Virus record (IMG/VR): IMGVR_UViG_3300048589_001426
Location: 1-34,824 of that record
Length of the DNA stretch: 34,824 nucleotides
Direction: 5' to 3' (one strand)
Source: a virus
Lineage: Duplodnaviria; Caudoviricetes
Below, in pieces: positions 1,027 through 34,824 of this stretch. The first letter of the stretch is position 1. The number at the start of each line of letters is the position of its first letter. The position numbers and the translations under genes were made by a program. Below the pieces are notes generated by a model, which saw only the letters and a program-made list of their open reading frames with translations, did no database searches and was not told the DNA's origin.

Positions 1027-1133
1027 TTTTTCAGGTGTTTGCTGACGACGCCACGTCGCCGACGAGACAAAGAGCAAGGAATGTTCCAAAATCTTGGTGA
1101 TCACACGAAATCGTCGGCTCTGGGAGAGGCTCG

Positions 1134-1613
1134 GTGCAATTTCGTAAGGCCGTCTCGATCATTTTGAAGCTGGAAGGCGGCCTGGTCGACGACCCGCGCG
1201 ACCCCGGCGGGCTTACGAAATTTGGCATCTCGCTTGCGGCCTATCCCAAGCTCGGTCGACAGGGGATCATGAAGCTGACGCTCGATGAGGCGCGGGCGAT
1301 CTACCGGCGGGACTTCTGGGATGCGGCGCGTTGCAGCGAGCTGCCGGCCGAGTTGCGGCTTGTCGTGTTTGACGCTGCCATCAATCAAGGCGCCAAGACG
1401 GCAATTCGTATCCTCCAAAAGGTTTTAGGCGTCACGGTCGACGGCGTCATCGGCCCTCAGACGCTTGGCGCTGCCGCCAAGGCTGACTGTGAGCAGCTGG
1501 TCGTCGACTTCATGGCTGAGCGCGCCGAGCGCTATGCGGGCCTTGCGACCTTCAAGACCTTTGGACGAGGCTGGATGCGGCGGCTTTTCCACGTGACTCG
1601 GCAGTCGGCTTGA
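1134..1613 (+). CDS. Glycoside hydrolase family 108 lysozyme (endolysin) with a C-terminal peptidoglycan-binding region
   Basis: Motifs EGGLVDDPRDPGGLTKFGIS, FDAAINQG, DGVIGPQT and FGRGWMRR. GTG start with GGGAG upstream. Confidence 0.9.
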   Translation: MQFRKAVSIILKLEGGLVDDPRDPGGLTKFGISLAAYPKLGRQGIMKLTLDEARAIYRRDFWDAARCSELPAELRLVVFDAAINQGAKTAIRILQKVLGVTVDGVIGPQTLGAAAKADCEQLVVDFMAERAERYAGLATFKTFGRGWMRRLFHVTRQSA

Positions 1614-1657
1614 AGGGCTCGACCTTACGGTACAAACCATAACCCGGGGTCATATCG

Positions 1658-2587
1658 ATGCGGCTTGAGCCTCGCATGAAGCCCTATCGGATCTTGTCGC
1701 TCGATGGCGGCGGGGTGCGAGGAGCTTACCAGGCTGTGCTCCTTGCTCGACTTGCCGAAGCCGTGCCTGCGTTTCTGCCATCGGTGCGCCTTTTTGCGGG
1801 CACCTCGATTGGCTCTGTTAACGCCCTGTCTCTGGCCTCGGGGAGGGCGGCAGCCGAGCTTGTCTCCTTCTTCGAACAGCATGGGGCCAAGGTCTTTGAC
1901 GACTCTTGGTGCGACAACCTCCAGGACATGGGCAAAGTCATAGGCGCTGACTATGACCAGGGCTACCTCAAGCGCCTTCTCGAGCGGACCTTCGGCGAGC
2001 AGCAGCTCTCAGATCTAAGGCGGCGCGTGCTCGTTCCGAGCTTCGACCTCGACAACGAGGGTTCCCCGAGGACGTGGAAAATGAAGTTCTTCCACAACTA
2101 CCCCGGGGCCGATTCAGACGGGACGGAACGGATGGTCGACGTAGCCTTGCGCTCGAGCGCGGCGCCGACCTACTTTCCAAGCTACCAGGGCTACGTCGAC
2201 GGTGGAGTAGGGTGCAACAACCCGGCGATGGCGGCCGTGGCTCTGGCCATCAACCCGGACATCGGCCGCCAGGATCTCCGCTCGCTGCGCGTCTTCTCGC
2301 TTTCGAGCGGAAGCAGTCCACAGTGGATCTCCGGCAAGACTCTCGACTGGGGCTTTGCCCAGTGGGCTCAGCCGATGGCAAGCCTGATGATCGACGCCAA
2401 CGTCGGGATCGCCGACTACCAGTGCCGACAGATTCTCGGGCGAAATGCCTATTTTCGCTTTGATGAGGTGCTTCCGCGCCACGTCGGAACAGATGAAACA
2501 GCCGCGCTGGGAGAACTCATGCAGTGGGCTCAAAGCGCGGATCTCACCGCAGCAGTGTCTTGGCTCGAGGAAAAATACCTAGGCTGA
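1658..2587 (+). CDS. Patatin-like phospholipase (start may be 1676)
   Basis: Oxyanion loop LSLDGGGVRG, nucleophile elbow GTSIG, SSAAPTYF and catalytic DGG are all intact. Confidence 0.93.
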   Translation: MRLEPRMKPYRILSLDGGGVRGAYQAVLLARLAEAVPAFLPSVRLFAGTSIGSVNALSLASGRAAAELVSFFEQHGAKVFDDSWCDNLQDMGKVIGADYDQGYLKRLLERTFGEQQLSDLRRRVLVPSFDLDNEGSPRTWKMKFFHNYPGADSDGTERMVDVALRSSAAPTYFPSYQGYVDGGVGCNNPAMAAVALAINPDIGRQDLRSLRVFSLSSGSSPQWISGKTLDWGFAQWAQPMASLMIDANVGIADYQCRQILGRNAYFRFDEVLPRHVGTDETAALGELMQWAQSADLTAAVSWLEEKYLG

Positions 2588-2827
2588 CACGCAAACGGCT
2601 TTGCCTTGGCAGGGCAAAAGCTCGAGGACCACTGGCGCGCTAGCGACCGGGCGGCCGAGCGCGTACAGAGGCCAAGGGAACCGAGCCGGCCCAGCACAAG
2701 AAGAGCCAGAGTGAAGGCGCCGAAGGTTGAGCGTTCCCGCGGTTATGAGCTGGGCTCTGAGCTTTTAAGGGCTACGCCTGAAGCTATGGACGATTAATTT
2801 CAATGATAATGGTTACATATTGCCTGC

Positions 2828-2855
2828 TCAAGCTTCTGGACAAAGACGCCGATAA
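2828..2855 (+). promoter_or_regulatory. Sigma28 (FliA)-like promoter for TA operon 1
   Basis: TCAA(G)-N16-GCCGATAA. The -10 element at 2848-2855 matches the sigma28 consensus exactly. Confidence 0.55.
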
Positions 2856-2860
2856 GCCTT

Positions 2861-2892
2861 AGGATCTGAAAATGGATCTTTAAACAGATCCT
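2861..2892. promoter_or_regulatory. Putative antitoxin operator
   Basis: Inverted repeat AGGATCTG...CAGATCCT, with GATC cores at 2863, 2875 and 2887 (12-bp period), between the promoter and the antitoxin start. Confidence 0.55.
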
Positions 2893-2909
2893 GAAAGGCA
2901 AAGGACGTT

Positions 2910-3260
2910 ATGAGACCAGAACCCCAACCGGCTCCCGCCAAAGAGCTTACGGTTCCGGCCGCCAAAGCGCGTAGCCAACAGCCACTTTTTGCCGGCACCG
3001 TTACGGTGAGCAAGATACGAAGCCCCGAAGGTAACGCCCTTCTCGGCGACGTGACAGACGACAAGGCCCTGCGCATCGTCCACCGCGGCCATCCCATCAA
3101 GGTCGTTGTGACCGAAGAACGCTACTTGGAGCTGCTGACCTTCTGGCAGCTCTTCGAGCACCAGGAGCCCCTGCCGACTACGACAGCAGCTGAGGAGCTC
3201 GCCGCGGCCGAACAGGAAGATGTCGAGCTCGACGCGCTGGAGGCCGAAGACCGTGACTGA
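2910..3260 (+). CDS. Phd/YefM-like type II antitoxin
   Basis: LRIVHRGHPIKVVVTEERYLELL fits the Phd/YefM pattern. It has an acidic C-terminal tail and overlaps the next gene. Confidence 0.6.
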   Translation: MRPEPQPAPAKELTVPAAKARSQQPLFAGTVTVSKIRSPEGNALLGDVTDDKALRIVHRGHPIKVVVTEERYLELLTFWQLFEHQEPLPTTTAAEELAAAEQEDVELDALEAEDRD

Positions 3261-3579
3261 GCGCGCCGCCTTGCCATGGCGGTGGGCCTCCGAAGGTGCG
3301 CGACGGCGATTTCGTGGCCGTGCTCGTGCGATGGCTGCCTTTCAGCCGTTTCCGTTAGAGACCAGGCGCCGCTATCGTGAGCACGTCCTCGCGGCAATCG
3401 AGGAACTTGCGCGTTATCCCGAGGCGGCGCCGCTGACTGCGGACAAAGCGTACCGCGTGAAGACGATCGCATCGACCGGCACAGCTCAGGGCGACGTAAT
3501 TCTTTATTCGTACAGTTCGGCTGGCGTCATGATTCATGGTGTGTTTCCGTATCTACCGCCGAAGTTCTTTGGGAGCTGA
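3253..3579 (+). CDS. RelE/ParE-superfamily toxin (divergent)
   Basis: The GTG at 3253 overlaps the end of the antitoxin gene. AAIEELARYPE...YRVK...VILYS...VMIHGVF is a RelE/ParE-like layout. Confidence 0.5.
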   Translation: MTERAALPWRWASEGARRRFRGRARAMAAFQPFPLETRRRYREHVLAAIEELARYPEAAPLTADKAYRVKTIASTGTAQGDVILYSYSSAGVMIHGVFPYLPPKFFGS

Positions 3580-3600
3580 CAGGTGATATCGATTCGGACC

Positions 3601-3634
3601 CCGAGCTGGGGGCGGTTTCCCCCCCTCAGCTCGG
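3601..3634. terminator. GC-rich stem-loop between the convergent TA operon and DGR cassette (terminator or DGR RNA structure)
   Basis: CCGAGCTG-GGGG...CCCCCC-T-CAGCTCGG inverted repeat. There is no poly-U tail. Confidence 0.4.
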
Positions 3635-3767
3635 TCAGCCACAGGTGTCTGGCTCGAAGTGCCTTGGGACAAACATCAGAAGGCTCAGCGTGGTCTTCTC
3701 ATCGCTGAAAAGACTTCCCTCACGCAGACAGCGAACCCCCAAGTCTCACGGCCGCCGGGCGAACGAC

Positions 3768-3881
3768 AAGGCGCAGCGAAAGCCCACGTTGCTGTTGACG
3801 TTCGACGGCCCATTGTTCAGATTGGCGGCGAACACGCCGGCGTTCGTGCCATTGTTCCAGTTGCCGCCGCGGAGCAGGGCA
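3768..3881 (-). repeat. DGR template repeat (TR)
   Basis: 114-bp ungapped match to 6257-6370 with 13 mismatches, all at TR adenines on the minus strand. It reads ALLRGGNWNNGTNAGVFAANLNNGPSNVNSNVGFRCA (10 AAY codons). Confidence 0.97.
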
Positions 3882-3934
3882 CCTTCGGACAACGCTGAAC
3901 GGCAGGCGCGGCCATTCTGAGCCCGACACCTTTT

Positions 3935-4888
3935 TCATAGCAAATTCTCGAAAGAACGAAACGACAGCTCGCTCTGCGCCATCCGGCTCGGGCGGGCTCC
4001 CGAGCGTTCCAGGCGCCCTATCCGCTTGGCAAACCTCCTCTTGTTGCGGCTTAGAATCCGATAGCCGCCGTGATCGAGCACATATCCTAAAAACGGCACG
4101 GGCGCGTTACCGAGCGGCATCCGCTTGAAGTGGGGAATCGAAAGTCTCAGCTCGCTTTCGACGTGCTGGGTCACGGCGTCGGCCGCGTCGAGGACCACCG
4201 ACTTATTGCGGCCCCCGAGGACCATGTCGTCCATGTAACGGAAGTAGAAGCCGCCTTTGAGCTGCTCGGTGGCGACACGGTCGGCGGAGACGAGATAAAA
4301 GTTGGCAAACACCTGGGACGTCAGGTTTCCGATCGGGATGCCGTAGCCGCGAGAGGCATACTCGGCATGGCTTTGCAGGAGTGAAGCCAGAAGAGGCTCG
4401 AGACTCCGGTCTGGCAGCGCCTCGAAAAGCTTGGCGAGCAGCACGTCATGCCGGATCGAGGCAAAGTATTGCGCGACGTCGAGCTTGATGACGAAGCGGT
4501 CTTTGCCATGCTCGCGAAGCACCGCAAGAAGATCCGTCGCGGCCTTCCGGTTGCCTTTGCCGTGACGGCAGGCATACACGCTCTCCGGTACCAGGGGATC
4601 GAGGATCGGCTCGATGATCTCGTGGATGGCTGTATGGACGACGCGGTCCATAAAGGGAGCCGCCAAGACGCGACGCGACTTGGGGTCTCTCACCAAGAGT
4701 TCCCGGTAGCGTCCCCAGCGATACTGGCCTGCTAGGATCTTGCCGCGCATGGCGACGAGCTTCTCGCCGTGGGCAAACATGGCGCGCTGATAGCCGGTCG
4801 AGGCACGCTTGCCGCGTGCGCAGAGCTGGAAAGCCCGTGCAAGGTTCTCGAACGCCGCCACCTCGTCAAGGAGCGTGGTCACGGGCAT
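3935..4888 (-). CDS. DGR reverse transcriptase (317 aa from ATG 4888)
   Basis: Motifs RDPKSRRVLAAPFMDRVVH, KLDVAQYFASIRH, the DGR-type GIPIGNLTSQ, catalytic RYMDD and FLGY. It has no maturase or endonuclease domain. Confidence 0.96.
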   Translation of the reverse strand: MPVTTLLDEVAAFENLARAFQLCARGKRASTGYQRAMFAHGEKLVAMRGKILAGQYRWGRYRELLVRDPKSRRVLAAPFMDRVVHTAIHEIIEPILDPLVPESVYACRHGKGNRKAATDLLAVLREHGKDRFVIKLDVAQYFASIRHDVLLAKLFEALPDRSLEPLLASLLQSHAEYASRGYGIPIGNLTSQVFANFYLVSADRVATEQLKGGFYFRYMDDMVLGGRNKSVVLDAADAVTQHVESELRLSIPHFKRMPLGNAPVPFLGYVLDHGGYRILSRNKRRFAKRIGRLERSGARPSRMAQSELSFRSFENLL

Positions 4889-5243
4889 CCGCCTCGAACT
4901 TCCCAAAGCCACCGATCTGCCGACCGACCTCGGCGGTCAGCTCGCTCAGCTCGGCATAGCCGGTGGTCGGAATGATCTGCATGTCATGCGAAAGCTGAAG
5001 CAGAATCCGGATCTCGTCCAAGTGCTCCGAGGCGCTCTCCAAGGAGGCGGACCGCCGCGAGTCTTTGCCGCCACTTTTGGCAAGGCTAGCGACGCGGACG
5101 GCTGACGTCAGGTCGATCGCCCGGTCCTCCAGGCGGCGGCCAAGTGTCGGGCGGTAGTGTTTGGGAAAGCTGCGTGTTCTTCCAAATACCATGACGGTCA
5201 ATTGGTAGCTGTCGGCGAGGATCTTGGGGCTTCTAGCGCTCAT
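4866..5243 (-). CDS. avd: DGR accessory variability determinant (Avd, four-helix bundle)
   Basis: 125 aa with FPKHYRPTLGRRL, LDEIRILLQLSHDM and EVGRQIGGF (Avd E-x-G-R/K-x-x-G-G motif). It overlaps the RT start. Confidence 0.9.
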   Translation of the reverse strand: MSARSPKILADSYQLTVMVFGRTRSFPKHYRPTLGRRLEDRAIDLTSAVRVASLAKSGGKDSRRSASLESASEHLDEIRILLQLSHDMQIIPTTGYAELSELTAEVGRQIGGFGKFEADARDHAP

Positions 5244-5952
5244 GGCGTCGCCCCCGGCCGTCGCGGTCCTGACCACGCTCGATTTTCTTGATCAAAGACG
5301 CAAACGCGGGCAGCACATCGCCCTCCAGAAAGGCGACGTCGCTGGCCCAACGCAGCCTCGCATCAGGATCACTGTAAACGAGCGCCAACGCCGCACCGAT
5401 CAGTCCTCGGGAGCGGTCATAGTAGGCGCGCTTTTCTGCGCCATACGAATAGAACCCGGAGCCGAGCTGCTCGAGAATCGCGCCCTGCAGATCACGCAGT
5501 CGATGGCCGTAGCGGAGCTTGTCGGCGTCCCCCCACATCGGCATCCGGAAAGCCTCCAGGCACAGCCGGTAGCAGGCAAGCCCGTCGAGGTTCTTCCCAG
5601 AGGAGGCCCGCCTGGGGCGCGGCGGGCGTTCGCTGCCTGTGGCCTCCGGCGACTTCGGAAGCGTTTCCGAAATTTCCGAAATTTCCGAAATTTCCGAAGT
5701 TTCGGAAATGGCCTGAGGCTCCCTTTCCGTGAGACCGCTGGCCTGCCGAAAGGCCTCCAGCGAGGCGAGGTCGACATACCAGCGCTTGCCGACACGCAGC
5801 GCCTTGATCTGTCTGGCCTTGATGTAGTTGAGGACCATGCGCTCAGAAACACCGAGAGATTTCGCGGCAGTATCGACGCTTACCTCGAGCTGGGATTGGG
5901 GCTGGCTGCGGCGTGGCATCGCGGGCGGCATGATCCTTGATTGGGAGCGCAA
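5233..5952 (-). CDS. Excisionase-like HTH fused through a repeat linker to a four-helix-bundle (IVP/Avd-like) domain; start may be an ATG near 5931 or 5919
   Basis: N-terminus VSVDTAAKSLGVSERMVLNYIKARQIKALRVGKRWYV is HTH_17-like. The linker is ISETSEISEISEISE. C-terminus LDGLACYRL...LRDLQGAILEQLGSG...EKRAYYDRSRG resembles 23S-IVP four-helix bundles. It overlaps the avd start. Confidence 0.7.
   Translation of the reverse strand: MRSQSRIMPPAMPRRSQPQSQLEVSVDTAAKSLGVSERMVLNYIKARQIKALRVGKRWYVDLASLEAFRQASGLTEREPQAISETSEISEISEISETLPKSPEATGSERPPRPRRASSGKNLDGLACYRLCLEAFRMPMWGDADKLRYGHRLRDLQGAILEQLGSGFYSYGAEKRAYYDRSRGLIGAALALVYSDPDARLRWASDVAFLEGDVLPAFASLIKKIERGQDRDGRGRRHER
5664..5708. repeat. 9-bp repeat array 1 (intragenic)
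   Basis: TTTCCGAAA x3, then TTTCCGAAG and TTTCGGAAA. Confidence 0.9.
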
Positions 5953-6008
5953 AGCACCCTAGCAGGGGATATCCTCACTCAAAAGGAGAAAATTCCTGAC
6001 TGGCATAA

Positions 6009-6076
6009 TTTCCGAAATTTCGGAAATTTCCGAAGTTGCGGAAGTTGCGGAAGTGACGTTTCCGAAGTTTCGGAAA
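6009..6076. repeat. 9-bp repeat array 2 (intergenic)
   Basis: TTTCCGAAA TTTCGGAAA TTTCCGAAG TTGCGGAAG TTGCGGAAG tgacg TTTCCGAAG TTTCGGAAA. Confidence 0.9.
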
Positions 6077-6147
6077 TGCTGCCTGATGGAGAAATAGACA
6101 TAATAAATTAAATCAACAACTTACGCGAATGTGCTGTTTCGGCACAA

Positions 6148-6174
6148 TTTCCGAAATTTCGGAAATTTCCGAAA
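6148..6174. repeat. 9-bp repeat array 3 (intergenic, next to the VR hairpin)
   Basis: TTTCCGAAA TTTCGGAAA TTTCCGAAA. Confidence 0.9.
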
Positions 6175-6182
6175 TGGAGCCG

Positions 6183-6201
6183 CTGGGGGCTACGCCCCCA
6201 G
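6183..6201 (-). promoter_or_regulatory. DGR target-recognition hairpin/cruciform downstream of the VR
   Basis: Perfect 8-bp stem CTGGGGGC/GCCCCCAG with a 3-nt loop (GTA on the coding strand), about 40 bp after the target stop codon. Confidence 0.8.
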
Positions 6202-6240
6202 ACCCCAAAACCAAGGACCAAGGTCCAAGAAACCAAGGAC

Positions 6241-9200
6241 TTAGTGGGCATTGGAGAAGGCGCAGCGAAAGCCCACGGAGCTGCTGACGTCCGACGGCCC
6301 ATAGTACAGAGTGGCGGCGAACACGCCGGCGATCGGGCCATAGTACCAGAGGCCGCCGCGGAGCAGGGCATTGCCACTTGCGCTGCATCCATAATACTGA
6401 CCGGCCCCGTTTGAGGAGGTCAGAGAGCCGCTTGGGCCAGCGACTAGTTTCTCCCAGTCGGTGACGTTGGCGTTGTTCCACTCGACCCATCCGGTGGTGT
6501 ACCAGCTCGTCGTATCGCATTGCGCATCCGTCCACTCCCAGACGTTGCCGGCCATGTCCCAGATGACATTGCCGTTGCTGAGGACGTGGGTGCGCATTTG
6601 CGACTTGTTGGCACCACCAGCCGAGTAGGCTGTGCTGTAGCCGTTGCTGGTACCGTAGTAGCCGTAGTCGGTGCTGTTGTTGGCGTAGGTGCCGGGGCCA
6701 CGCAGGGCGCAGGAGTTGTTGCTGGCATCGGAGAGTGCAAGGGTCAGCGTGCAGCTCGCAAGCGAGGGGTCCGCCACCGCGGCCAAGGCGCTAGCCGGAG
6801 AGTTGTCGGAGTGGCCGGTGGCAAGCTGGATGCCGGCTGCAGAGTCGATGTCGTTGATGGCGGTTGCCTCGATGTTGCGAGCGATGGTCATCCACTCGCC
6901 TTCGTTGACAAGGTGGCCGCCGACCCGCTTGCAGGCGCTTTGAGCCTCATACCAGGAGACGTTGACCCAGGGGGTGCCCGTGGCGGTCGAGACGGCCTGG
7001 CCGGTGGCGCCATCCTTCTTAGCCTCGTACTTCATGACGCAGAAGCTTGCGTTGGTGAAGCTCGCATTGCCCGGCACCAGGATATAGCCCGTGGGGCAGG
7101 TGAGACTGGCTGCCGGCAAATTGGTGAGCTGCGAGCCGTCGACGGCCGGAAGCCGGGCACTACCGTCGAGCTGGACGACTTTGTTGGCGGTGGTGCCGAC
7201 ATCGAGTGTCGCGCTGGTGCCAAGGCCGAGGCTGGTGCGCGCGGTCGCGGCGACCAGGCCGGTGGCACCGCCGTCCCATTTCATGCGGTCCGTGTAGGCG
7301 GTGTCCCAGTTGGCGGAGTTATCGGTCACGACGCTGTAGGTCCCCGCACCGGTGCGGGCCATCAGGCCGTTTGAGCCGAAGTCGCCGTTCATCACGGCAC
7401 CGGCGCTGTCGACCGTCGCTGTCGTGACGACGCTCGTGAGCTGCGAGCCGTCGACGGCGGGCAGCTTGGCAGTGCCGTCGAGTTGCACGACCTTGTTGGC
7501 AGTGGTGCCGACGTCCAACGTGGCGGCCGTGCCGAGGCCTAGGCTGGTGCGGGCCGTCGCAGCGACAAGGCCGGTAGAGCCGCCGTCCCACTGCAGACGC
7601 TCACTGTAGGCTGTATTCCAGTTGCTGGTGCTGAGAGCAAGCCACGACGTCGTGCTGCCGTCGGTCGTGAGCACCTTGCCGGAGTTGCCCGTCTGTGCGG
7701 GCAGAAGATTCGTCAGAGCTCCATCGGCCGTCGTCGCGCCGGTGCCGCCCTTGGCTACGGCCACGGCCGCACTGAGGTTGGCGGGGCTGAGGCTGGTAAG
7801 GGCCGAGCCGTCGACGGCTGGCAGCTTGCCCGTGCCATCGAGCTGCACCAGTTGATTGGCGGCGGTGCCGGCATCGAGCGTAGCCGATGTGCCGAGGCCG
7901 AGGCTCGTTCGGCCGGTGGCGGCGACGAGGCCGGCAGAGCCGCCGTCCCACTTCAGGCGGTCGGTGTGCGCCGTGTCCCAGTTGGCCGCGTTGAGAGCAC
8001 TCCACGAGGCCGCCGTGCCGTCGGTCGAGAGAACCTTGCCGGAGTTGCCGGTCTGGGCGGGTAGCAGGTTGGTGAGTGCCGCGCTGGCGGTGGCGGCCCC
8101 GGTGCCGCCGCGGGAGATCGAAAGCTGCGCCTCGGAGCTCATCACGCCGCTGCCGTCGTTGACGAGCACGTGGGAAGCCGTGCCGGAAGCCAGCTTGGCG
8201 CGGGCGATACCCGCGCCTGTTTTGATCTCCGAGTCGTCGATGCCCGTGATCGTGTTGTCGTCGGCGCTGATCGTCTTGTTGGTCAGGGTGTCTCCCGAGC
8301 TGGCGGTGGTTGCTGTCACCCAAGACAAGGCGCCCGAGCCATTTGTGCTGAGCAGCTGGCCGGCCGTGCCGTCTGCGGCTGGCAGAGTCCAGATCTGATT
8401 GCTTGCGACCGCGTCGGGCGCCTTGAGGCCGACGTAGTTGCTCTCGAGCCCGTCACGCTCGGTAAAGCGCAGCTCGCCGGTTTGTCCCGCGCCGCTGCCA
8501 TAGCCGCCGAGCGTCACGGCGGCCTGCAGGTCCGTGGTGAGCGAGCCGACCGGCAGGACGGTGGCGGCCGTGATGGTCGACTGCTTGGCGTTGAGCTGGG
8601 CTTGCGGGTCTGAGGTCAGGCCCGCCAAATAGTTGAAGTGCGTGTTGTCGACTGCTCCCGTGCCGATCTTGCCGGCATCGATGTTGGCCGAGGCGCTGAT
8701 GTCGGCGTTTGCGATGGTGCCGTCGGCTATGGTGGTCGACGTGACGTCGCCAGCGTTCAGGCCGCCGCTGGCAATGTCGTTCATGAGCTTGAAGCTGCCG
8801 GTGGCGTTGTCCCACTTGACGACCTTCTGGTCATTGCTGGCATCGAGCGCATCCGTGAAGGCCTTGCCGCGGATCTTGGTGACCACTGTGGCATTCTGCG
8901 TGCCGCTGACGTCACCGCTCAGCGTGCCGGAGAAGCTCTGTGCTTGTTTGATGGCGGTGATGTCACCCCCTGCGTCGACTTCGACGAAGGCGCCGGTCGC
9001 TTTGATCACGCCGGGCGTATTGGCCGCGGCGGCCGGAAGAGTGGCCTTGAGGCGGCCGTTGTCGTCAAACGTCACGGTGCTGCCGTCGACCGGCACCCGG
9101 GCTGCCAGCGGTACGACAGTAAAGCGCTGCCGGGGATAGGTGCGCGCGTTGGTCTGGTCGGTGATCTCGATATAGGCGGTCGTTTCGGCCGAGGGGAAAA

Positions 9201-9483
9201 TCGTCGTGTAGTCGTCGACCGGCAGATCGAGAGTAAGCTGGAAAACTCCGTCCTGAAGGGTCTCGGAGGGGGCGACGACCGGCTCGCCGAGCAGCGGATT
9301 GCCGCCGGTCTCGCTTCGGAAGAAATTCACGGCAAGATCGACCGGCCCCGACAACGGTGCACCGGTCGCATCAGTCAGGCGTCCGCCGTAGGACAACGGG
9401 AACGGGCCTGCGCTAGCAGCCAGCGGCGCCAGGGCGAGCCACAGCCCGGTCAGAGCCGAGGAGAGTTGGTGGTGCTTGGGCAT
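6241..9483 (-). CDS. DGR target: secreted fibre/adhesin-like protein with a C-terminal CLec (FGE-sulfatase-like) variable domain
   Basis: Signal peptide ending ASA-G, then LSYGGRLTDATGAPL. The stalk is G/T/A/S-rich with long repeats. The C-terminal domain has CPTGYILVPG, FCVMKYEAK, PWVNVSWYEAQSAC, DMAGNVWEW and RGG.W...GFRC. Confidence 0.9.
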   Translation of the reverse strand: MPKHHQLSSALTGLWLALAPLAASAGPFPLSYGGRLTDATGAPLSGPVDLAVNFFRSETGGNPLLGEPVVAPSETLQDGVFQLTLDLPVDDYTTIFPSAETTAYIEITDQTNARTYPRQRFTVVPLAARVPVDGSTVTFDDNGRLKATLPAAAANTPGVIKATGAFVEVDAGGDITAIKQAQSFSGTLSGDVSGTQNATVVTKIRGKAFTDALDASNDQKVVKWDNATGSFKLMNDIASGGLNAGDVTSTTIADGTIANADISASANIDAGKIGTGAVDNTHFNYLAGLTSDPQAQLNAKQSTITAATVLPVGSLTTDLQAAVTLGGYGSGAGQTGELRFTERDGLESNYVGLKAPDAVASNQIWTLPAADGTAGQLLSTNGSGALSWVTATTASSGDTLTNKTISADDNTITGIDDSEIKTGAGIARAKLASGTASHVLVNDGSGVMSSEAQLSISRGGTGAATASAALTNLLPAQTGNSGKVLSTDGTAASWSALNAANWDTAHTDRLKWDGGSAGLVAATGRTSLGLGTSATLDAGTAANQLVQLDGTGKLPAVDGSALTSLSPANLSAAVAVAKGGTGATTADGALTNLLPAQTGNSGKVLTTDGSTTSWLALSTSNWNTAYSERLQWDGGSTGLVAATARTSLGLGTAATLDVGTTANKVVQLDGTAKLPAVDGSQLTSVVTTATVDSAGAVMNGDFGSNGLMARTGAGTYSVVTDNSANWDTAYTDRMKWDGGATGLVAATARTSLGLGTSATLDVGTTANKVVQLDGSARLPAVDGSQLTNLPAASLTCPTGYILVPGNASFTNASFCVMKYEAKKDGATGQAVSTATGTPWVNVSWYEAQSACKRVGGHLVNEGEWMTIARNIEATAINDIDSAAGIQLATGHSDNSPASALAAVADPSLASCTLTLALSDASNNSCALRGPGTYANNSTDYGYYGTSNGYSTAYSAGGANKSQMRTHVLSNGNVIWDMAGNVWEWTDAQCDTTSWYTTGWVEWNNANVTDWEKLVAGPSGSLTSSNGAGQYYGCSASGNALLRGGLWYYGPIAGVFAATLYYGPSDVSSSVGFRCAFSNAH
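6257..6370 (-). repeat. DGR variable repeat (VR) at the 3' end of the target gene
   Basis: Encodes ALLRGGLWYYGPIAGVFAATLYYGPSDVSSSVGFRCA. 101 of 114 bases are identical to the TR. Confidence 0.97.
7125..8110 (-). repeat. Three imperfect intragenic repeats in the fibre stalk
   Basis: The unit NW(D/N)TA...WDGG..GLVAAT.RTSLGLGT.ATLD.GT.AN..VQLDG...LPAVDGS occurs three times. The anchor GCCGTCGACGGC lies at 7135, 7447 and 7807 (spacing 312 and 360 bp). Confidence 0.85.
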
Positions 9484-9532
9484 TCGGGCAACTCCGAGCA
9501 GGCACGGATTCCTCTAGGCGGCTTGTAGGAGG

Positions 9533-9560
9533 AGGTCGGACTTTTGCCTCAAAGTCTTTA
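9533..9560 (-). promoter_or_regulatory. Sigma28-like promoter upstream of the DGR target gene
   Basis: Minus strand TAAA(G)-N16-TCCGACCT, with the same spacing as the site at 2828. Confidence 0.4.
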
Positions 9561-9649
9561 GGGAAAGTGAGAATCTGGCTCAACAGCTCGACTTTTATGG
9601 AGGGAGTAGAGGGGCTTGGGATGACGTCGGATAGGGCGGCTAGAGTTTG

Positions 9650-9677
9650 TACTTTATGACAAATTTTTCATATAGTA
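9650..9677. promoter_or_regulatory. 28-bp imperfect palindrome, a putative operator of the XRE antitoxin
   Basis: TACTTTATGACAAA|TTTTTCATATAGTA, with 12 of 14 positions pairing. It overlaps TATA(G)-N16-TCCGATAA at 9671-9698. Confidence 0.55.
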
Positions 9678-9698
9678 AAATCAAAGGAGATCCGATAA

Positions 9699-9794
9699 GA
9701 GAAGGACGGGGCCATCCTGCTCGTCGGTGATGACAAGGGATCGCAAGCATCCGACATCGAAACTGCTCAAAAACGGCTGCAGGACAAGGAGTAG
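9699..9794 (+). pseudogene. 3' remnant of a HigB/RelE-like addiction-module toxin
   Basis: Reads EKDGAILLVGDDKGSQASDIETAQKRLQDKE*, matching the LL-x-GGDK-x-x-Q-x-x-DI-x-x-A toxin C-terminus. It follows an in-frame TAA, has no start codon and ends 3 bp before the HTH gene. Confidence 0.65.
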
Positions 9795-9797
9795 GCT

Positions 9798-10148
9798 GTG
9801 GCTCGCTTTACCAAAGAGCGACTTGAACAATTCCAGGACGTCGACGAGCTGCTGAATGCGCGCCTGACGCCAGAGGAGCGAGCGGAAAGCAGGCTCGAAG
9901 CTTTGCAAGAGCTTGCCGATTTGAAGGCGATGCAGGAAGAGCTGAGCAAGACTGTGGTTGAGTTCATGGCGACTGAAAAAATCGGGGTCCCCATGCTCAC
10001 CTCGAGACTTGGAACAAGTACTCGGCAGGCTTATAAGATCGTCAATGCGGAGGCGAATCTCACGCTAGCCAGTCTTGTGGAGCTGGGGCGTGTGTTAGGC
10101 AGGCGTCCCCGGATTGTTTGGGATCGGCGCGAGGATGAACAAGAGTAA
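9798..10148 (+). CDS. XRE-family HTH protein (HigA-like antitoxin)
   Basis: LTSRLGTSTRQAYKIVNAEANLTLASLVELGRVLG. RBS AAGGAG upstream of the GTG start. Confidence 0.75.
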   Translation: MARFTKERLEQFQDVDELLNARLTPEERAESRLEALQELADLKAMQEELSKTVVEFMATEKIGVPMLTSRLGTSTRQAYKIVNAEANLTLASLVELGRVLGRRPRIVWDRREDEQE

Positions 10149-10227
10149 GCAAGCGGCTCCCTGCGTCCGACCCCCGTCTTTCTCTGCAAAAAGACGCCGC
10201 ACCCAGCTGGTTAGATTGCGACAAAGA

Positions 10228-13302: not shown

Positions 13303-13499
13303 GCATTTCAAAAATTCGCGAGCCTTCGTGGCTGCTTGGGGCTGTGGTTAAGGGGTGGTTGGCGGTGAGAGGAGCGGGCCGCACTTTGTATATACTTGAG
13401 CTCAAGCAAGCTTCTACAAGCAAAGGTATATACGGAACCATCCTTCTTCCCAGCACCGGCCGTAAGTCCGCAAATTTTTTCATTCTCTAGGGAGGTGGC

Positions 13500-13541
13500 G
13501 CGGCGCCGCCGGCACCGCAAAAGGGGGGTGGGAAAGGACCC
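13500..13541 (-). other. Lambda-like cosQ-cosN packaging site candidate
   Basis: Minus strand GGGTCCTTTCC, then CGGCGGCGCCGC 23 nt after GGGTCCT. Lambda, as recalled, has GGGTCCT-N23-GGGCGGCGACCT. Confidence 0.6.
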
Positions 13542-13829
13542 ATTTGCATGCTTTCTGTGCATTGTATCGGAAGCTGTTGCTGCTTTGGTGAAAGCCGTAA
13601 ACCTGCCGCTTTTTGTCTGCTATCTTAGAGTCATAGGTTCATTTACCGACAGAATGCATGGCCGTGCGCGAGGGCTCCTTGTGGCTCAAGGGTTTTGCGT
13701 CTCATCTTCGGTGCCGTCCCGGCCCTTCGGAGTAACCCTGTCTTACCTCCTACTTCTCACGACGAAGAAAGGGGTGGGGCTTGGGCGCTATTTATTCGCA
13801 AAAGCGTGCTGGGGAAGGAGCAGAGTCGG

Positions 13830-15422
13830 GTGCTGACGATCTACTACGTGTCGCTTGGTGGCTCACTGGAGGAGATGAAGCGGCTCTACCGGGCGCAGGA
13901 GGAGAGGCGGCATCCCGGCAAGATGCTGCCGCACCTGGACGAGCGCATGAACAAGGTGCGGGTGGTACTCGAAAAGAATACCTCCTTTCGCTCGCTGATG
14001 CTGACGGCCGAAGACCGCAGTGTGGTGGTGATCGATGGCCTGAACCACCCCAGGCTCGACATCGACCTCTTCGTCGATCTCTACGAGAAGCGCCGGAAAG
14101 ACGGCCTCTACGTGCGGCTGCTTGATGAAAACCTGCTGCTTGATCCCAAAGAGCAGATGACCAGCTCGTTTCTCACCGGGGTCATGAACACTCATCAGAA
14201 AAAGCTCCGCCCCCGACGGCTGCCGAGCATCGCCGAGGCCCACGGCAAAAGCTTTATCTCCGACATGCAGCGCGAGAGGCGAGAGGGCGCAACGCTGGAG
14301 GCCTTGGCAAAGAAGTACGGCGTGTCGGTGAGTGCCGCCCACCGCTACACGCGCGGCCACCAGCGACCGCTTGCGCGCAAGGTGGAGAGCGACAAGTCCG
14401 AGCCGGCCAAAAGCCTAGCAAGGCTTGGAAACCTCGCAGAGACGCCCGAAGAGAGGCTCGAGCAGCTTCTCGAGATCTTTCTTTCCGGCCAAAGAAAGCC
14501 CGCCACCGCCAAGCTCTACCGCAAGCACCTTGGCACCTATCGCGCCTTTGCCAAGGACGTGCTCGAAAGCCCCGCCGACCGTCTCGACAAGTTCACGCTG
14601 GAAAGCGTCGTGGCCTTCAAGCAGTACCGAGCCGAGCTTGGCAAGCAGCCGGCCACCATCGCCAGCGAGCTGTCGGCCGTCAAAGCCTTCATGCAGTTTT
14701 GCGCTGGCGAAGAGGAGATCCCGAAAAACCCGCTTCAAAGGCTCAAGGTTCCAAAGATCGACAGAAAGGTCCAGACCGAGGCGCTCACCCGAGACGAAAC
14801 CGCCAAGGTCATCGCCACGGCCCAGGAGATCTTGAAGTCGACGCCGCCTTTGAACATCCCCCAGCGCTGGAAGGCCCACCGCGACCTCTTGGCCGTCTAC
14901 CTCTTGGCCGGCGTCGGCATGCGCCACAGCGGGCTTCTTTCGCTTAGAAAGTGCGACCTCGTCGAGACACGCCGCGGCAAAAGCCTCGCCATTGAAAGCA
15001 AGGCCAACGCCGATCGCTACACTGTCGGCGTCTCAAAGCCAGTCGCCGACATGGTCGAGGCCTATATCGAGCGCTACTTTCACGACGCCCCTCCCGAGGC
15101 CTACCTTTTCTCGGCCTCTCTCGAGGTCAAGGACAAGCCGCTAGGCATTTCGACCAGCTGTCGCCGCATTAGTGTCCTTTTCGACAAGGCCGGCATCACC
15201 CCGCTTGCTGCCGGGGGAAGCCAAAGAAGAGCCCACAGTCTCAGAGTCTCGTGGGCCAAGTTTGCCTACGAAGACGGCGCCGATATCCGTAGTATCCAGC
15301 TCAAAATGAATCACAGCGCCGTCGACCAGACCTACGCCTATCTAAAAATCGACGACGCCGAGGTCGACACCAGGTGGCTGCCGACTGTCCGTCTGCAAAC
15401 CTCCACCGGAGTGAGGCTTTGA
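13830..15422 (+). CDS. Tyrosine recombinase with an N-terminal degenerate resolvase-like region and HTH (530 aa)
   Basis: GTG 13830 after AAGGAG. Catalytic set R (GMRHS), K (ESKAN), HSLR, NHS and TYAY. Core-binding region PATIASELSAVKAF..F...NPL. N-terminal HTH TLEALAKKYGVSVSAAHRY. Confidence 0.85.
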   Translation: MLTIYYVSLGGSLEEMKRLYRAQEERRHPGKMLPHLDERMNKVRVVLEKNTSFRSLMLTAEDRSVVVIDGLNHPRLDIDLFVDLYEKRRKDGLYVRLLDENLLLDPKEQMTSSFLTGVMNTHQKKLRPRRLPSIAEAHGKSFISDMQRERREGATLEALAKKYGVSVSAAHRYTRGHQRPLARKVESDKSEPAKSLARLGNLAETPEERLEQLLEIFLSGQRKPATAKLYRKHLGTYRAFAKDVLESPADRLDKFTLESVVAFKQYRAELGKQPATIASELSAVKAFMQFCAGEEEIPKNPLQRLKVPKIDRKVQTEALTRDETAKVIATAQEILKSTPPLNIPQRWKAHRDLLAVYLLAGVGMRHSGLLSLRKCDLVETRRGKSLAIESKANADRYTVGVSKPVADMVEAYIERYFHDAPPEAYLFSASLEVKDKPLGISTSCRRISVLFDKAGITPLAAGGSQRRAHSLRVSWAKFAYEDGADIRSIQLKMNHSAVDQTYAYLKIDDAEVDTRWLPTVRLQTSTGVRL

Positions 15423-15715
15423 GGGAAGAACACAAAGGAGGAGCCCTCGAGGTCGAGCAGGTGCGGCTCACCAAGGTGAGAGCCGACAAGCTCGAGCTGG
15501 AGCTGCTCGAGAAAGAGCGCCAGCTCGTGCCAGTCGACGAGGTGAAAAAGCTCTGGAAGGCGGCCGTCATGGCAGCCAAGGCGAGGCTTCTTGCGATCCC
15601 AGCGTCGCTGGCGCCCACCCTGGCTCTCCTTGGTGAGCCAGCCGAGGTCGAAGAGGTGCTCACTCGGGCCATCGACGACGCCTTGGCCGAGCTTTCCAGG
15701 GGAGAGGTCATTTGA
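15419..15715 (+). CDS. Terminase small subunit, Nu1-like C-terminal region only
   Basis: RLTKVRADKLELE..E..RQLVPVDEV...ARLLAIP...AIDDALAELS. TTGA overlaps with both neighbouring genes. Confidence 0.75.
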   Translation: MREEHKGGALEVEQVRLTKVRADKLELELLEKERQLVPVDEVKKLWKAAVMAAKARLLAIPASLAPTLALLGEPAEVEEVLTRAIDDALAELSRGEVI

Positions 15716-17556: not shown

Positions 17557-17813
17557 TGGAAGAGGTCAAAGTGGCGCTCGAGCGCGCAAGGTCGATTTCG
17601 GCTGCCATCGACGCTACGATTGCAGGCCGCGTCGGCAGCGACATCTCCTCCTTTGAGATCGAGACCAACCTCGGAAAGCGCCGGCTCGACAAAATCCCGC
17701 TCAAAGAGCTGCTTCAGGCAAAAGACTACTACCAAAAAGAGATTGCTCGCCTTGAGGCACGGCTTAGACGCGGAGACCTGCCGTCTGCCCGCCAAGTCCT
17801 CGTGAGGTTTTAA
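17556..17813 (+). CDS. Head completion protein (lambda gpW position)
   Basis: GTG overlapping the terminase stop. 85 aa between terminase and portal, ending in VRF. Confidence 0.65.
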   Translation: MEEVKVALERARSISAAIDATIAGRVGSDISSFEIETNLGKRRLDKIPLKELLQAKDYYQKEIARLEARLRRGDLPSARQVLVRF

Positions 17814-17819
17814 AGACGC

Positions 17820-21979: not shown

Positions 21980-21986
21980 AGACGAG

Positions 21987-25028: not shown

Positions 25029-25591
25029 CAAGCCTTCTGCCGAAAAATTCGACGCCGCTTGAGAGGACGCTCGAGGAGGTCGCAGGGCAGAGGCTCGAGG
25101 GCCTCTCCTTTGACTTTGCCTCGCTTTTTGACCCTGACACCTGCCCGCCGGCCTTTCTGCCGTATCTGGCTTGGGAGAGGGGGGTTGAGCTGTGGGACGA
25201 GGACTTTGTCGGGGTGGAGAGCGAAGACGACCTGACGAGGCGGCGCCGTGAGATCATCTCTCGCTTTGAGAAGATCAAAAGGCTGCGCGGCACCCTGGCT
25301 GCCATCGACTTGGCCATGGAGACCCTTGGCGTCAGGGCTAGAATCCGCGAGTGGTGGGACCACCCCGAGCCGAGGGAGCCCTACACCTTCAAGGTCATCC
25401 TTTTCAACAAGGACAACCGCCCCCTTGGCGAGGCCGAAAGACGCCGCATCCTGCGCGTCATCGAGTCGCTAAAGCCGCTTAGAGCCCGCTTTGACCTCGA
25501 CGTCATGTTTGAGGCCGAGGCCACAGTCGGGGCAGCGATGTTTGCGCGCCTGACTCGCATCAAGCGTTTTGCCGCCGTCGTGGGGCGTTGA
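25025..25591 (+). CDS. Tail protein I (P2 gpI-like)
   Basis: SLLPKNSTPLE, PDTCPPAFLPYLAW, RGTLAAI and EWW...PYTF. Confidence 0.92.
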   Translation: MTSLLPKNSTPLERTLEEVAGQRLEGLSFDFASLFDPDTCPPAFLPYLAWERGVELWDEDFVGVESEDDLTRRRREIISRFEKIKRLRGTLAAIDLAMETLGVRARIREWWDHPEPREPYTFKVILFNKDNRPLGEAERRRILRVIESLKPLRARFDLDVMFEAEATVGAAMFARLTRIKRFAAVVGR

Positions 25592-26715
25592 TGGAGCGCC
25601 CTAGGATTACAAGACGCGGGCTCGAGGCCCTGGCCGAGGCCGAGGCCAGGGGCAAGAGGCTTCGCTTTGTCGGCATTGAGCTGGGAAAGGCCTCCTACGA
25701 TCCAGACGGCTCGGAGGAGGCGCTCAAGGAGAGGGTCGAGGCTTCGAGTCTTGCCGACTCAAACCGGGTCTCTGGAAACCGCGTTCACCTCACAGCCGAG
25801 TTTCGCTCTGGGAGAGAAGCCTACGACGTCGGCGAGATGGGCATTGTGGCAAGCCTCGAAGGGGTGGACGGACCGATCCTCTTTGCCGTGCTCTCTAGGG
25901 CAGGCGAGATTCTCGCCAAGCGGATAGCGTCGGAAGACCTGCTTTTTGGCATCGACCTCATTCTCGAAGAGATCCCGGACTCTCTCATTGCAGTCGAAGG
26001 GGTCGGAGAGCGCCTCAACCTCTCCTTGGCACGGGAGCTTGCTGCGGTGGCGCTGTCTCTCACGCAAGGCCAGCGGCACACGCTCGAGCTGATGCGAGAG
26101 CTGGCCGCCACCCGAGGGGAGTTTTTAACCTTCAAGGAGGTCGCCAAGGCCTCGCTGGCGGCTCTGCGGGCCGAGTTTCAGGCCCAAAAGGCCGAGACTG
26201 AGAGGCTTCTGCAGGGGGTCAAAGCGGAGCTTGAGGCCCAAGTGGCCGAGGCTCGAGGTGAGCTTGCCCGCTACAAGGAGCGGCTTGGAGCCCTTCTTGG
26301 CTGGCCTGCTGGGGCGGGGGCTCAAGCTCTTCTGCAGGAGCTCGAGCTCGAGGTGTCGACTCCCGTCCCCGATATGGGGGGGCCTCTCGTGTACGAATTT
26401 ACCAAGAAGACGTCTGGCAGCCTCAAGGTCGGGCTCAGAGACTTCTGGCTTCTGCGCACGGGCGCCTCTTTCCCGCGCGAGCTGACGCTCGAGATCTATC
26501 TCAACGACTTTCAGCGGCGCTTTCGCCTCGAAACAGCCGACTACAGCGAGAAGTATCTTTATCTCGGCAGCGGGCTTGTCGAGTTTGAGTTCTCCGAGGC
26601 AGAGCTTACCTCTCCAGGCCTAAAGGAGGGTCTTTGGGGTCTAAAAATAGTCGAGGCCACTCAGGCGCTTTTTTCTCGCTCGGCGCGAAAGCCTGCCGTT
26701 TTCTTTATGGAGTAG
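25588..26715 (+). CDS. Tail (collar) fibre protein with a central coiled coil
   Basis: N-terminus ITRRGLEALAEA...EMGI...ILFAV is typical of P2 gpH-like baseplate anchors. It follows gene I. Confidence 0.7.
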   Translation: MMERPRITRRGLEALAEAEARGKRLRFVGIELGKASYDPDGSEEALKERVEASSLADSNRVSGNRVHLTAEFRSGREAYDVGEMGIVASLEGVDGPILFAVLSRAGEILAKRIASEDLLFGIDLILEEIPDSLIAVEGVGERLNLSLARELAAVALSLTQGQRHTLELMRELAATRGEFLTFKEVAKASLAALRAEFQAQKAETERLLQGVKAELEAQVAEARGELARYKERLGALLGWPAGAGAQALLQELELEVSTPVPDMGGPLVYEFTKKTSGSLKVGLRDFWLLRTGASFPRELTLEIYLNDFQRRFRLETADYSEKYLYLGSGLVEFEFSEAELTSPGLKEGLWGLKIVEATQALFSRSARKPAVFFME

Positions 26716-26719
26716 GGAC

Positions 26720-28547: not shown

Positions 28548-28552
28548 AGGGC

Positions 28553-33032: not shown

Positions 33033-34055
33033 ATGCCGCGTGCTCCGTCGAAGCAGCTCCAGAATTCTCCATTCAAGGATGTTGAATTCAACATGATGCA
33101 ACTATCTGAGTTGCTTGGCATTTCCCGCGCATCACTGTACCAGATGGAGAAGGCAAAGGTCATCGAAGGGCGCACCGTCAGGTCCGGAGCTTCCTCGAAG
33201 AAGGTTTTTGGCTGGTCTGATTTACAGCGAATCGTCAAGCATCAGCCGGACAAGGTGACTCGTCCTCGCGATTTGAAGGTAAAGGTCTTCGCGAATCTTA
33301 AGGGTGGAGTTGGCAAGTCATCTCTTGCGTCTCAAGTGGCAATGCGCGCCTCTGCTTCCGGCACGAGGACCTTGCTTATCGATTTGGATCCTCAGGCGCA
33401 TGCAAGTCTAGCGCTGGGATTTGACAATCTTTCGGAAGAAATTCCTACGATCCTTAATTGCATGTTTGCGCAGAGCAACGGCAAGAAAGCGTCTATCGAC
33501 GACGTCATACAAATGGTGACTCCCTTCTTGGGAATCATTCCGTCCAGCCTAGCCATGTCGTCGCTCGAGGTGAAGCTTCAGCAGGATTACAAGGGAGCGG
33601 AGAAGCTTAAGAAGGTTCTTGAGCAAATAAGAGACGACTGGGATCTGATCGTAATCGACACCAATCCCTCCGCATCTCTCTTGAACATCAATGCACTTCT
33701 CGCTGCTGACGAACTCTGTGTCGTCTGTGCGACTGACTTTCTCTCAGTTTCTGGCCTTCGTCAGTTGTTCCAGATTTTGAAGGATCTCCAAGAGGATTTC
33801 GATGATTTTGGGCCGGAGGTTCGAGTCATTCCGAATCTATTTGATGTGCGGGAGGCGATAGCTCAGGAAGCCTTAGGGGTACTTCGACAGCAGTACGGAA
33901 AGTTTTGTTGCAACACGGTAGTTCGAAAAAATGTTGATCTCAAAGAAGCGCAGAAGCTGGCGCAGGCTGTCTGGCTGTATAAGAAGAGGTCGCCAGCGGC
34001 TGAGGATATCGCGGCTCTTACTCATGAACTGATCGTCGAGGAGATGCGGAAATGA
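33033..34055 (+). CDS. parA: Type Ia plasmid partition ATPase with an N-terminal HTH
   Basis: HTH QLSELLGISRASLYQME, deviant Walker A NLKGGVGKS, LIDLDPQAHAS and IVIDTNPS. RBS GGAGG. Confidence 0.93.
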   Translation: MPRAPSKQLQNSPFKDVEFNMMQLSELLGISRASLYQMEKAKVIEGRTVRSGASSKKVFGWSDLQRIVKHQPDKVTRPRDLKVKVFANLKGGVGKSSLASQVAMRASASGTRTLLIDLDPQAHASLALGFDNLSEEIPTILNCMFAQSNGKKASIDDVIQMVTPFLGIIPSSLAMSSLEVKLQQDYKGAEKLKKVLEQIRDDWDLIVIDTNPSASLLNINALLAADELCVVCATDFLSVSGLRQLFQILKDLQEDFDDFGPEVRVIPNLFDVREAIAQEALGVLRQQYGKFCCNTVVRKNVDLKEAQKLAQAVWLYKKRSPAAEDIAALTHELIVEEMRK

Positions 34056-34660
34056 CGACGATCAAGACCCGGGATCCGAGTCCAGCTTTTTTATCGCAAG
34101 TAAGTGAATTTAAGCCGAAGACGCGCACCGCGAGACCATGGCGTGGTAACGATAAGGCTTCACTGAAAGGTGGGGAAGCACAGCCTCAGCCTCAAAGCTC
34201 AGATGAGGAAATTTCTGATTCATCTGAAAATGCTCCGACCGATTCGGTTGTAAGTGAAGAGCCGGAGAGCCCCTCTGGTGGCATCGACTTGCCTCAAAGG
34301 AAGAGACCGGAGACCGTTGGAAGGCTGAGACATCTACAGCCGCCAAATGATCTCTGCGATCTAAAGCGTGCTGATCAATTTGTAGAGGAATTTCTCTTAG
34401 AGAAGATTGGATCTAGGCACTTTTCTCTCTTTAGAGCGTATCGAGCGATGTACTCGCAAGCGCGCGAGAACGGGGGCCGCACGCTACACTTCAGACGCGC
34501 AGATCTAAATGCTTTGCTTGGCACTTCTTCAAGCGCCACGGTGACTCGAGTCCTTAAAACAGGCATCAAACTGGGGCTCTTCGAGGTTCAGACATTTATG
34601 CTGCGATCCGGAGATCTTGAGGCGGGAACGTATATCCACCTGCGGTCGCCATGGCAATAA
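34052..34660 (+). CDS. ParA-coupled protein with a disordered N-terminus and a C-terminal winged-HTH-like domain
   Basis: ATGA overlap with parA. C-terminus FRRADLNALLGTSSSATVTRVLKTGIKLGLFEV. No ParB GxRR motif. Confidence 0.6.
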   Translation: MTTIKTRDPSPAFLSQVSEFKPKTRTARPWRGNDKASLKGGEAQPQPQSSDEEISDSSENAPTDSVVSEEPESPSGGIDLPQRKRPETVGRLRHLQPPNDLCDLKRADQFVEEFLLEKIGSRHFSLFRAYRAMYSQARENGGRTLHFRRADLNALLGTSSSATVTRVLKTGIKLGLFEVQTFMLRSGDLEAGTYIHLRSPWQ

Positions 34661-34682
34661 ATCCAGTAAAAACAAATGCGTG

Positions 34683-34824
34683 CTCGTTACGGGCCGACTC
34701 GTTACGGGCCGACTCGTTACGGGCCGACTCGTTACGGGCCGACTCGTTACGGGCCGACTCGTTACGGGCCGACTCGTTACGGGCCGACTCGTTACGGGCC
34801 GACTCGTTACGGGCCGACTCGTTA
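34683..34824. repeat. Perfect 15-bp tandem array (centromere or iteron candidate), truncated by the window end
   Basis: CTCGTTACGGGCCGA x9 plus 7 bp, with no spacers. Confidence 0.92.

Follow-up and report, generated by a model that had tools for sequence, protein, structure and literature searches.

Host-type fibre as the probable target of a phage-borne diversity-generating retroelement

Diversity-generating retroelements (DGRs) copy the RNA of a template repeat (TR) with miscoding at adenines and home the product into the variable region (VR) of a target gene. In phages, they are read by default as virion devices that determine host range. Viral DGR targets are mostly structural (Roux et al., 10.1101/2020.04.01.020958), and phage DGR targets have been reported to lack signal peptides (Benler et al., PMC6199706). 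The locus studied here raises the question of whom such a system serves when its target looks exported. A 34,824-base virus record (IMG/VR IMGVR_UViG_3300048589_001426; the whole stretch is hereafter called the window) carries a DGR on the minus strand, and its target gene (6241..9483, minus strand) encodes a 1080-aa fibre with a signal-like start. An earlier note on this DNA, which had described the usual phage DGR targets in the same terms as the papers above, proposed that the diversified protein is an exported fibre of host type, carried as cargo, and not the phage tail fibre. The comparative evidence presented below supports this proposal well, and we consider it likely that the fibre is a host surface adhesin, diversified by the phage-borne DGR for the benefit of the carrier.

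The retroelement and its target

The window encodes a lambda-type terminase, portal, capsid, a contractile tail module, an endolysin, a tyrosine recombinase and ParA. On the minus strand, the order of genes is the 1080-aa target, a gene for a helix-turn-helix (HTH) protein, avd, reverse transcriptase (RT) and the TR. The TR (114 nt; 3768..3881, minus strand) is located downstream of the RT gene, and the VR of the same length (6257..6370, minus strand) forms the C-terminal end of the target gene. The two repeats differ at 13 of 114 nt, and all 13 mismatches fall on TR adenines, of which there are 22; the TR permits variation at 12 codons of the VR, or about 9e12 protein variants. The RT (3935..4912, minus strand) matches Pfam RVT_1 above the cut-off and was also placed in a tree (see below), while the avd-like gene (4866..5276, minus strand) is recognized by Pfam bAvd (E 1e-8) and NCBIfam DivGenRetAVD (E 1e-12), in both cases below the curated cut-offs. 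The avd gene, RT and TR are intact, and the locus combines the features by which a DGR is known: adenine-only differences between TR and VR, RT and Avd genes beside the TR, a VR at the C-terminus of a C-type-lectin-fold domain, and adenine-specific diversification.

The last of these features is seen in the comparison of related loci. The target is carried by five IMG/VR loci. One of them, L002, shares 99.98% identity with the window and is hence not independent, and no difference separates L003 from L006. Between the target genes of L004 and L005 there are 12 differences in 3,243 nt, all of them within the VR at TR adenines. The DGR is therefore apparently active, and the pattern reads as a trace left by recent mutagenic homing. 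In public contigs of four sequencing runs, just pieces of relatives were found, and these yielded no counts of VR variants within a population. Across target variants that are 78-92% identical, the full length, the signal, the cysteines and the reading frame are all kept.

Four parts can be distinguished in the target protein. A predicted Sec signal peptide (residues 1-25; 9409..9483, minus strand) was called by a hydropathy heuristic: it starts with MPKHHQ, continues with a hydrophobic stretch at residues 7-21 (best 11-residue Kyte-Doolittle mean, 1.77) and ends with A-S-A at residues 23-25. Behind it lies a conserved N-terminal beta-sandwich domain (N-domain; residues 28-150; 9034..9402, minus strand), delimited by alignment and modelled by AlphaFold2 with a mean pLDDT of 89.8. 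The Gly/Ala/Thr-rich, cysteine-free stalk (7111..9033, minus strand) includes three long repeats of about 300 nt each at 7117-8088. The tip (6241..7110, minus strand), which contains the VR, has a C-type-lectin fold of FGE type: it matches Pfam FGE-sulfatase PF03781 above the cut-off (E 3.6e-6) and, as a profile, the DGR protein TaqVP (5VF4; E 4e-5). The Sec-type start, the repeat stalk and the lectin-fold tip had all been noticed in the earlier note, and each was recovered here. All 8 cysteines of the protein are in the tip, and they are conserved in the bacterial targets of genomes G003, G006 and G008; paired disulfides, and therefore maturation in an oxidising compartment, would explain this distribution.

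A similar start was looked for in other members of the N-domain family. Among 209 N-domain proteins compared, 16 were too short for the test, and a hydrophobic segment just ahead of the N-domain was present in all 193 others, vs 372 of 4,201 interior control windows. The motifs quoted in the earlier note were found at residues 30, 337, 350, 365 and 375, and the stalk motif among them recurs in 47 of the 209 proteins. The N-domain has no model in Pfam, NCBIfam or PHROGs; fold searches with its model gave generic beta-sandwich matches only, with a best Z of 7.3 and nothing in BFVD or PDB that reached E<=0.001, and PDB sequence searches with the whole protein and with the N-domain returned nothing credible.

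The phage has its own tail fibre gene (25588..26715, plus strand), which encodes 375 aa with no cysteine and no VR. Residues 4-193, its N-terminal half, match PHROG 3737 'tail fiber protein' (E 5.7e-28), and its C-terminal domain has no family match in Pfam or PHROG searches; the protein is assumed to be the receptor binder. As the earlier note had pointed out, the DGR target is antisense to this gene, at a distance of 16.1 kb. A scan of both strands of the window over a 117-nt span with adenines left free identified no second VR: the known VR agrees with the TR at 94 of 95 non-adenine positions, vs 50 of 95 at the next best place. The tail fibre gene is therefore free of TR-like sequence, again in agreement with the earlier note.

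A bacterial fibre family in an exchangeable phage slot

The distribution of the N-domain points to bacteria. No match was detected among 50,697 INPHARED phages or 72,556 plasmids, and within IMG/VR the domain is limited to 5 loci, all from this phage group. A scan of a genome collection gave a sole hit, a genome with 13 N-domain matches, and around it 13 of 41 genomes hold 2-49 matches each. Across one bacterial phylum, the profile matched 21 of 131 genomes. When 1.84 billion representatives were searched with the profile, 890 hits were obtained at 1e-10 and 18,878 at 0.001, the weaker ones forming a wide family of signal-bearing fibre proteins. The tips behind the same N-domain differ (S74 chaperone, fibrinogen, RCC1, FGE and others, some of them unassigned). 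Judged from these sequence matches, the N-domain is a bacterial multi-copy family. Some of its matches lie in very long open frames (12,490 codons in G006:C20 and 9,481 codons in G008:C24), which would be giant family members.

The DGR cassette is likewise present in bacterial genomes. Relatives of the RT with 46-65% identity were found at 12 loci in 10 of the 131 genomes, and half of these loci (G003, G006, G008, G010:C234, G077 and G122) have adenine-only TR/VR pairs; at the other six, several of which are short contigs, no TR/VR pair was detected within the stretch taken. The DGR target was verified as a fibre with signal and N-domain in G006, G008 and G010, while in G003 and G077 the start of the target is cut off at the contig end. 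The open reading frames flanking the cassettes of G003, G008 and G010 have no match to the structural genes of the window, and several of them are presumably housekeeping genes, recognized from their translations, most of which were not scanned. None of the eight RT-bearing genomes compared has a close terminase match (E<=1e-40). On this evidence, the cassette of fibre, HTH gene, avd, RT and TR sits in a non-phage context of bacterial genomes as well. In a quick tree of 57 RTs, rooted by distant outgroups, the phage RT and all 12 bacterial RTs group in one clade (SH-aLRT 100), separate from 17 other viral RTs. Because the phage RT is nested among bacterial ones, the tree favours uptake from the host side.

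Two cassettes of this kind deserve separate mention. Neighbours of the cassette of G006 (L122/L123, G006:C41) include genes that resemble window positions 2910-3579, together with a resolvase and a ParA pair, and this cassette may be an integrated plasmid-like element akin to the accessory region of the phage. In G122, the target (L172 2696-7096) is a protein of 1466 aa that begins like a lipoprotein and does not match the N-domain.

Sister phages provide a second comparison, at the level of the cargo slot (3584..10205), which contains another fibre gene in G042 and corresponds to a wider region with restriction genes in G043. Phage G042 is 97% identical to the window over 2-3583 and 94% over 13467-32839, and its tail fibre shares 373 of 375 residues. 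Its slot contains a 1519-aa fibre with a signal and an N-domain, the latter only 41% identical to that of the window, and a different tip; no RT and no TR/VR were found there. In phage G043 (36.7 kb), the tail fibre equals that of the window in length, and the cargo region contains McrBC-like and methylase genes; no match to the N-domain, the tip or the RT was detected in this phage. In addition to the McrBC-like and DNA methylase genes, this region of G043 (L156 9959-14970) encodes small exported-looking proteins. Toxin-antitoxin-like genes are located on the flanks of the slot. Since sister phages swap or lack the cassette and keep the tail, the slot can be described as exchangeable, and by sequence comparison the cassette is swappable cargo, exchanged independently of the tail. 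The tip of the tail fibre shares 98 of 135 residues with that of the window in one cassette carrier and 134 of 135 in G042, and so its similarity, which pays no regard to cassette type, does not co-vary with the cargo fibre. Two separate captures, one for the window fibre and another for that of G042, were also considered; the tree hints at them, but a single clade is not rejected (p-AU 0.158).

Taken together, the multi-copy chromosomal family of the N-domain, the bacterial copies of the cassette, the RT tree and the swaps among sister phages argue that the DGR target is a host-type cargo fibre and not a tail fibre.

Proposed function and competing explanations

We propose the following scheme for the carrier-borne adhesin. 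RT and Avd would copy the TR RNA with miscoding at adenines and home the product into the VR. The Sec system would carry the target protein across the inner membrane, where its tip would form four disulfides and the fibre would trimerise, and the N-domain would be anchored by the host machinery that serves its chromosomal paralogues. Carriers could thereby try out as many as about 9e12 tip variants in binding to cells or surfaces. The phage would gain through the fitness of its host and spread the cassette between hosts.

Other roles of the exported fibre may be considered. It could guard the resident phage by masking or decoying surface receptors, possibly the fibres of the host itself, against competitors, with the DGR keeping the tip ahead. 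The McrBC-like and methylase genes in the slot of G043 are cargo of a defence type, and the toxin-antitoxin-like genes on the flanks fit the same picture; however, the cassette also occurs in the non-phage context of several bacterial genomes, the protein has the architecture of a long adhesin, and no tie to a known exclusion system was found, so that we regard a guarding function as unlikely. Quite unlikely, in our estimate, is a fibre that is secreted, matured in the periplasm and acquired at lysis by virions, on which it would serve as an additional fibre for receptor binding, docked on the short tail fibre in the manner of Mtd of BPP-1. Such a role would suit the shortness of the tail fibre, whose C-terminal domain has no family match, the structural nature of most viral DGR targets (Roux et al., 10.1101/2020.04.01.020958), and the facts that TaqVP, the nearest solved tip, is described as prophage-encoded and that two sister lineages carry such a fibre. 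Against it, G043 has the same tail without such a fibre, the tail fibre of G042 is nearly unchanged (373 of 375 residues) yet the N-domain of its cargo fibre is only 41% identical to that of the window, and the N-domain belongs to a bacterial multi-copy family that is absent from the reference phages.

It is also conceivable that a host DGR module has recently hitch-hiked on the phage to the benefit of neither phage nor carrier. The slot is exchangeable and dispensable, and the RT nests among bacterial RTs, as would be expected of a passenger; but a target that keeps its full length, signal, cysteines and frame in variants of 78-92% identity, and the different intact fibre that a second lineage carries in the same slot, make this very unlikely.

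Several observations weigh against the adhesin proposal itself and define its limits. G043 is estimated to be 94% complete and ends without overlap, so a fibre gene could sit in the gap, and this phage may be non-infectious. Export is predicted by a hydropathy heuristic, and the predicted structure of the tip has a pLDDT of just 34. In G122, the same tip and cassette occur without the N-domain, and the tip module is hence not bound to one display route. The direct profile match between the N-domain and a set of three Bdellovibrio-type sequences was not significant, and the neighbours of the N-domain in the ESM Atlas (very few records) are labelled Myxococcota, Verrucomicrobiota and Bacteroidota. 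With regard to the host, a DNA search for prophages and spacers in 95 genomes, with 3 candidates per genome scored, gave just 6 short, imperfect hits, and terminase relatives in these genomes reach 40-45% at most.

Host and relation to known systems

The earlier note had suggested a host from Bdellovibrionota. A few source labels speak for it: among the 120 RT relatives listed, organism labels are few and comprise Bdellovibrionales (59%), Pseudomonadota (50%), Deltaproteobacteria (49%), Bdellovibrio sp. (48%), Binatia (40%) and 'bacterium', and the labels of strong N-domain hits read Proteobacteria or Deltaproteobacteria. The search of the 95 genomes supplied no prophage or spacer match in support of this assignment, and the host is probably Bdellovibrio-related. 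The fibre-rich group of genomes we take to be Oligoflexia, probably Oligoflexales, from the labels and the size of the group (95 genomes for the order, 131 for the phylum). Algal predators have been reported among Oligoflexales (PMC12865303).

The second part of that suggestion, a resemblance to the MAT fibres of Bdellovibrio bacteriovorus, is supported for the architecture, and direct homology was not significant. According to Caulton et al. (PMC10769870), MAT fibres begin with a signal peptide, contain a beta-rich domain about 130 aa in length, vary in their tips and are displayed at the surface, and Table S3 of that paper includes an FGE-tipped MAT in Bdellovibrio sp. ArHS. In common with them, the window fibre has a predicted signal, a beta-rich N-domain right behind it and a long stalk, and its family has tips that can be exchanged (S74, lectin and others) and many paralogues per genome. 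The MATs described there are chromosomal, and the paper draws no connection to DGRs, which it mentions only in the title of one reference, whereas the window fibre is phage-borne and joined to one. MATs are surface-displayed trimers, whereas for the window fibre both the trimer and the display are putative. By way of the wide N-domain family, a link at 99.7% and a second at E 0.002, colinear along the domain, lead to the Bdellovibrio-type set, which comprises a plasmid protein of Bdellovibrio sp. HAGR004 and two relatives, stands in for the MATs of strain HD100 and was called MAT-type by its architecture. The kinship to MAT fibres is therefore best called architectural, with a homology that is weakly indicated, remote and transitive.

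Like BPP-1 and other phage DGRs, the window DGR combines a phage-borne RT, Avd, a TR, a C-terminal VR in a C-type-lectin fold and adenine-specific changes. The gene order of target, HTH gene, avd, RT and TR differs from that of these systems. The targets of the latter are mostly virion proteins, whereas the window target begins with a signal-like stretch, is located outside the tail module and is dispensable in sister phages. Features expected of a virion target of the Mtd type are missing: the start is signal-like, the gene is 16 kb from the tail genes on the other strand, and it is swapped in G042 and was not detected in G043. TaqVP, an FGE-type C-type-lectin DGR protein of a Thermus aquaticus prophage (PMC6328139), is a 381-aa monomer with no stalk, whereas the window tip with its 8 conserved cysteines ends a 1080-aa fibre.

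The surface-protein DGRs of Legionella and Treponema are related precedents, grouped here with the DGRs borne by integrative and conjugative elements (ICEs) of Bacteroides. According to 10.1101/2024.11.15.621889, the latter diversify the tips of Type V pili, and some pilin-like targets are prophage-encoded. As is proposed for the window, a mobile element brings a DGR that acts on a surface adhesin of the host and that the element can do without in transfer, and the principle thus has a precedent. The vehicle in Bacteroides is conjugative and the target is a lipoprotein pilin, whereas here a tailed phage with its complete structural module is the vehicle and the target is a single-chain fibre. 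The window contributes the carriage by a tailed phage of a DGR acting on a host-type fibre, with sister phages as controls. No literature on DGRs in connection with Bdellovibrionota or Oligoflex was found, although bioRxiv supplements may list this RT clade, nor was a case of a DGR with a MAT-like fibre found in the Bdellovibrio literature, as judged mostly from titles and the beginnings of abstracts; the MAT paper just cites a DGR title. Two lines that were unjoined in the literature found thus meet at this locus: hypermutation by DGRs, and fibres of MAT-like build, the tips of which presumably determine the binding partners of Bdellovibrio-type bacteria. If DGRs of phages can be cargo acting on an exported host-type fibre, this is relevant for the annotation of thousands of viral DGR targets. 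A further-reaching idea, namely that plasmid-like phages of Bdellovibrio-related predators deliver hypermutable prey-recognition fibres via a dedicated slot and thereby set the prey range, is possible and at present doubtful.

DGRs were also observed in cultured Bdellovibrio sp. HAGR004, one on each of the plasmids pBdHAGR5 (AP029181, L176 4353-7378) and pBdHAGR4 (AP029180, L177 8136-11161). Their RTs are missing from the listed annotation, and the RT is just 28% identical to that of the window. The two 399-aa targets consist of a signal, a beta-rich N-domain, a short stalk and a cysteine-rich tip, and differ from each other by 23 nt, all in the VR; mismatches between TR and VR are adenine-only (15 in 117 nt and 12 in 85 nt). 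The availability of this strain makes it testable whether mutagenesis of the tip alters prey binding.

The remaining features concern maintenance and regulation. ParA, an unassigned partner gene and 15-bp tandem repeats (33033..34824, plus strand) form a likely plasmid-type maintenance module. These elements are swapped among sister phages, with 27-30% identity vs more than 90% for their neighbours (L157-L159), an exchange as seen with plasmid replicons, which suggests a plasmid-like temperate life; no plasmid relatives of informative value came from searches with ParA and the partner protein. A GH108 endolysin followed by a patatin-like phospholipase (1134-2587) is kept in sister phages and possibly constitutes a lysis pair.

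A GC-rich 8-bp hairpin with a GTA loop (6183..6201, minus strand), seen in the centroid structure 55 nt past the VR, is a candidate target-recognition hairpin. The z-score of the whole segment is just -1.55; the hairpin is present in L004 too, and a strict scan found a hairpin downstream of the VR in 2 of 6 bacterial cassettes. The accessory gene (5233..5952, minus strand), which encodes an HTH_17 domain and a conserved, unassigned helical C-terminal domain, belongs to the cassette at related loci; its product travels with most RTs of its clade and is a candidate regulator or accessory factor. The assignment of its C-terminal domain as a second Avd was tried and found unsupported (0.2%, E 0.39). 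Promoter and terminator scans remained at chance level. A near-palindromic 9-bp unit (TTTCCGAAA type) occurs in clusters within and upstream of the HTH gene (5646-5710 and 5991-6176); similar clusters were seen in G008 and G122, not in G010, and are possible operator sites.

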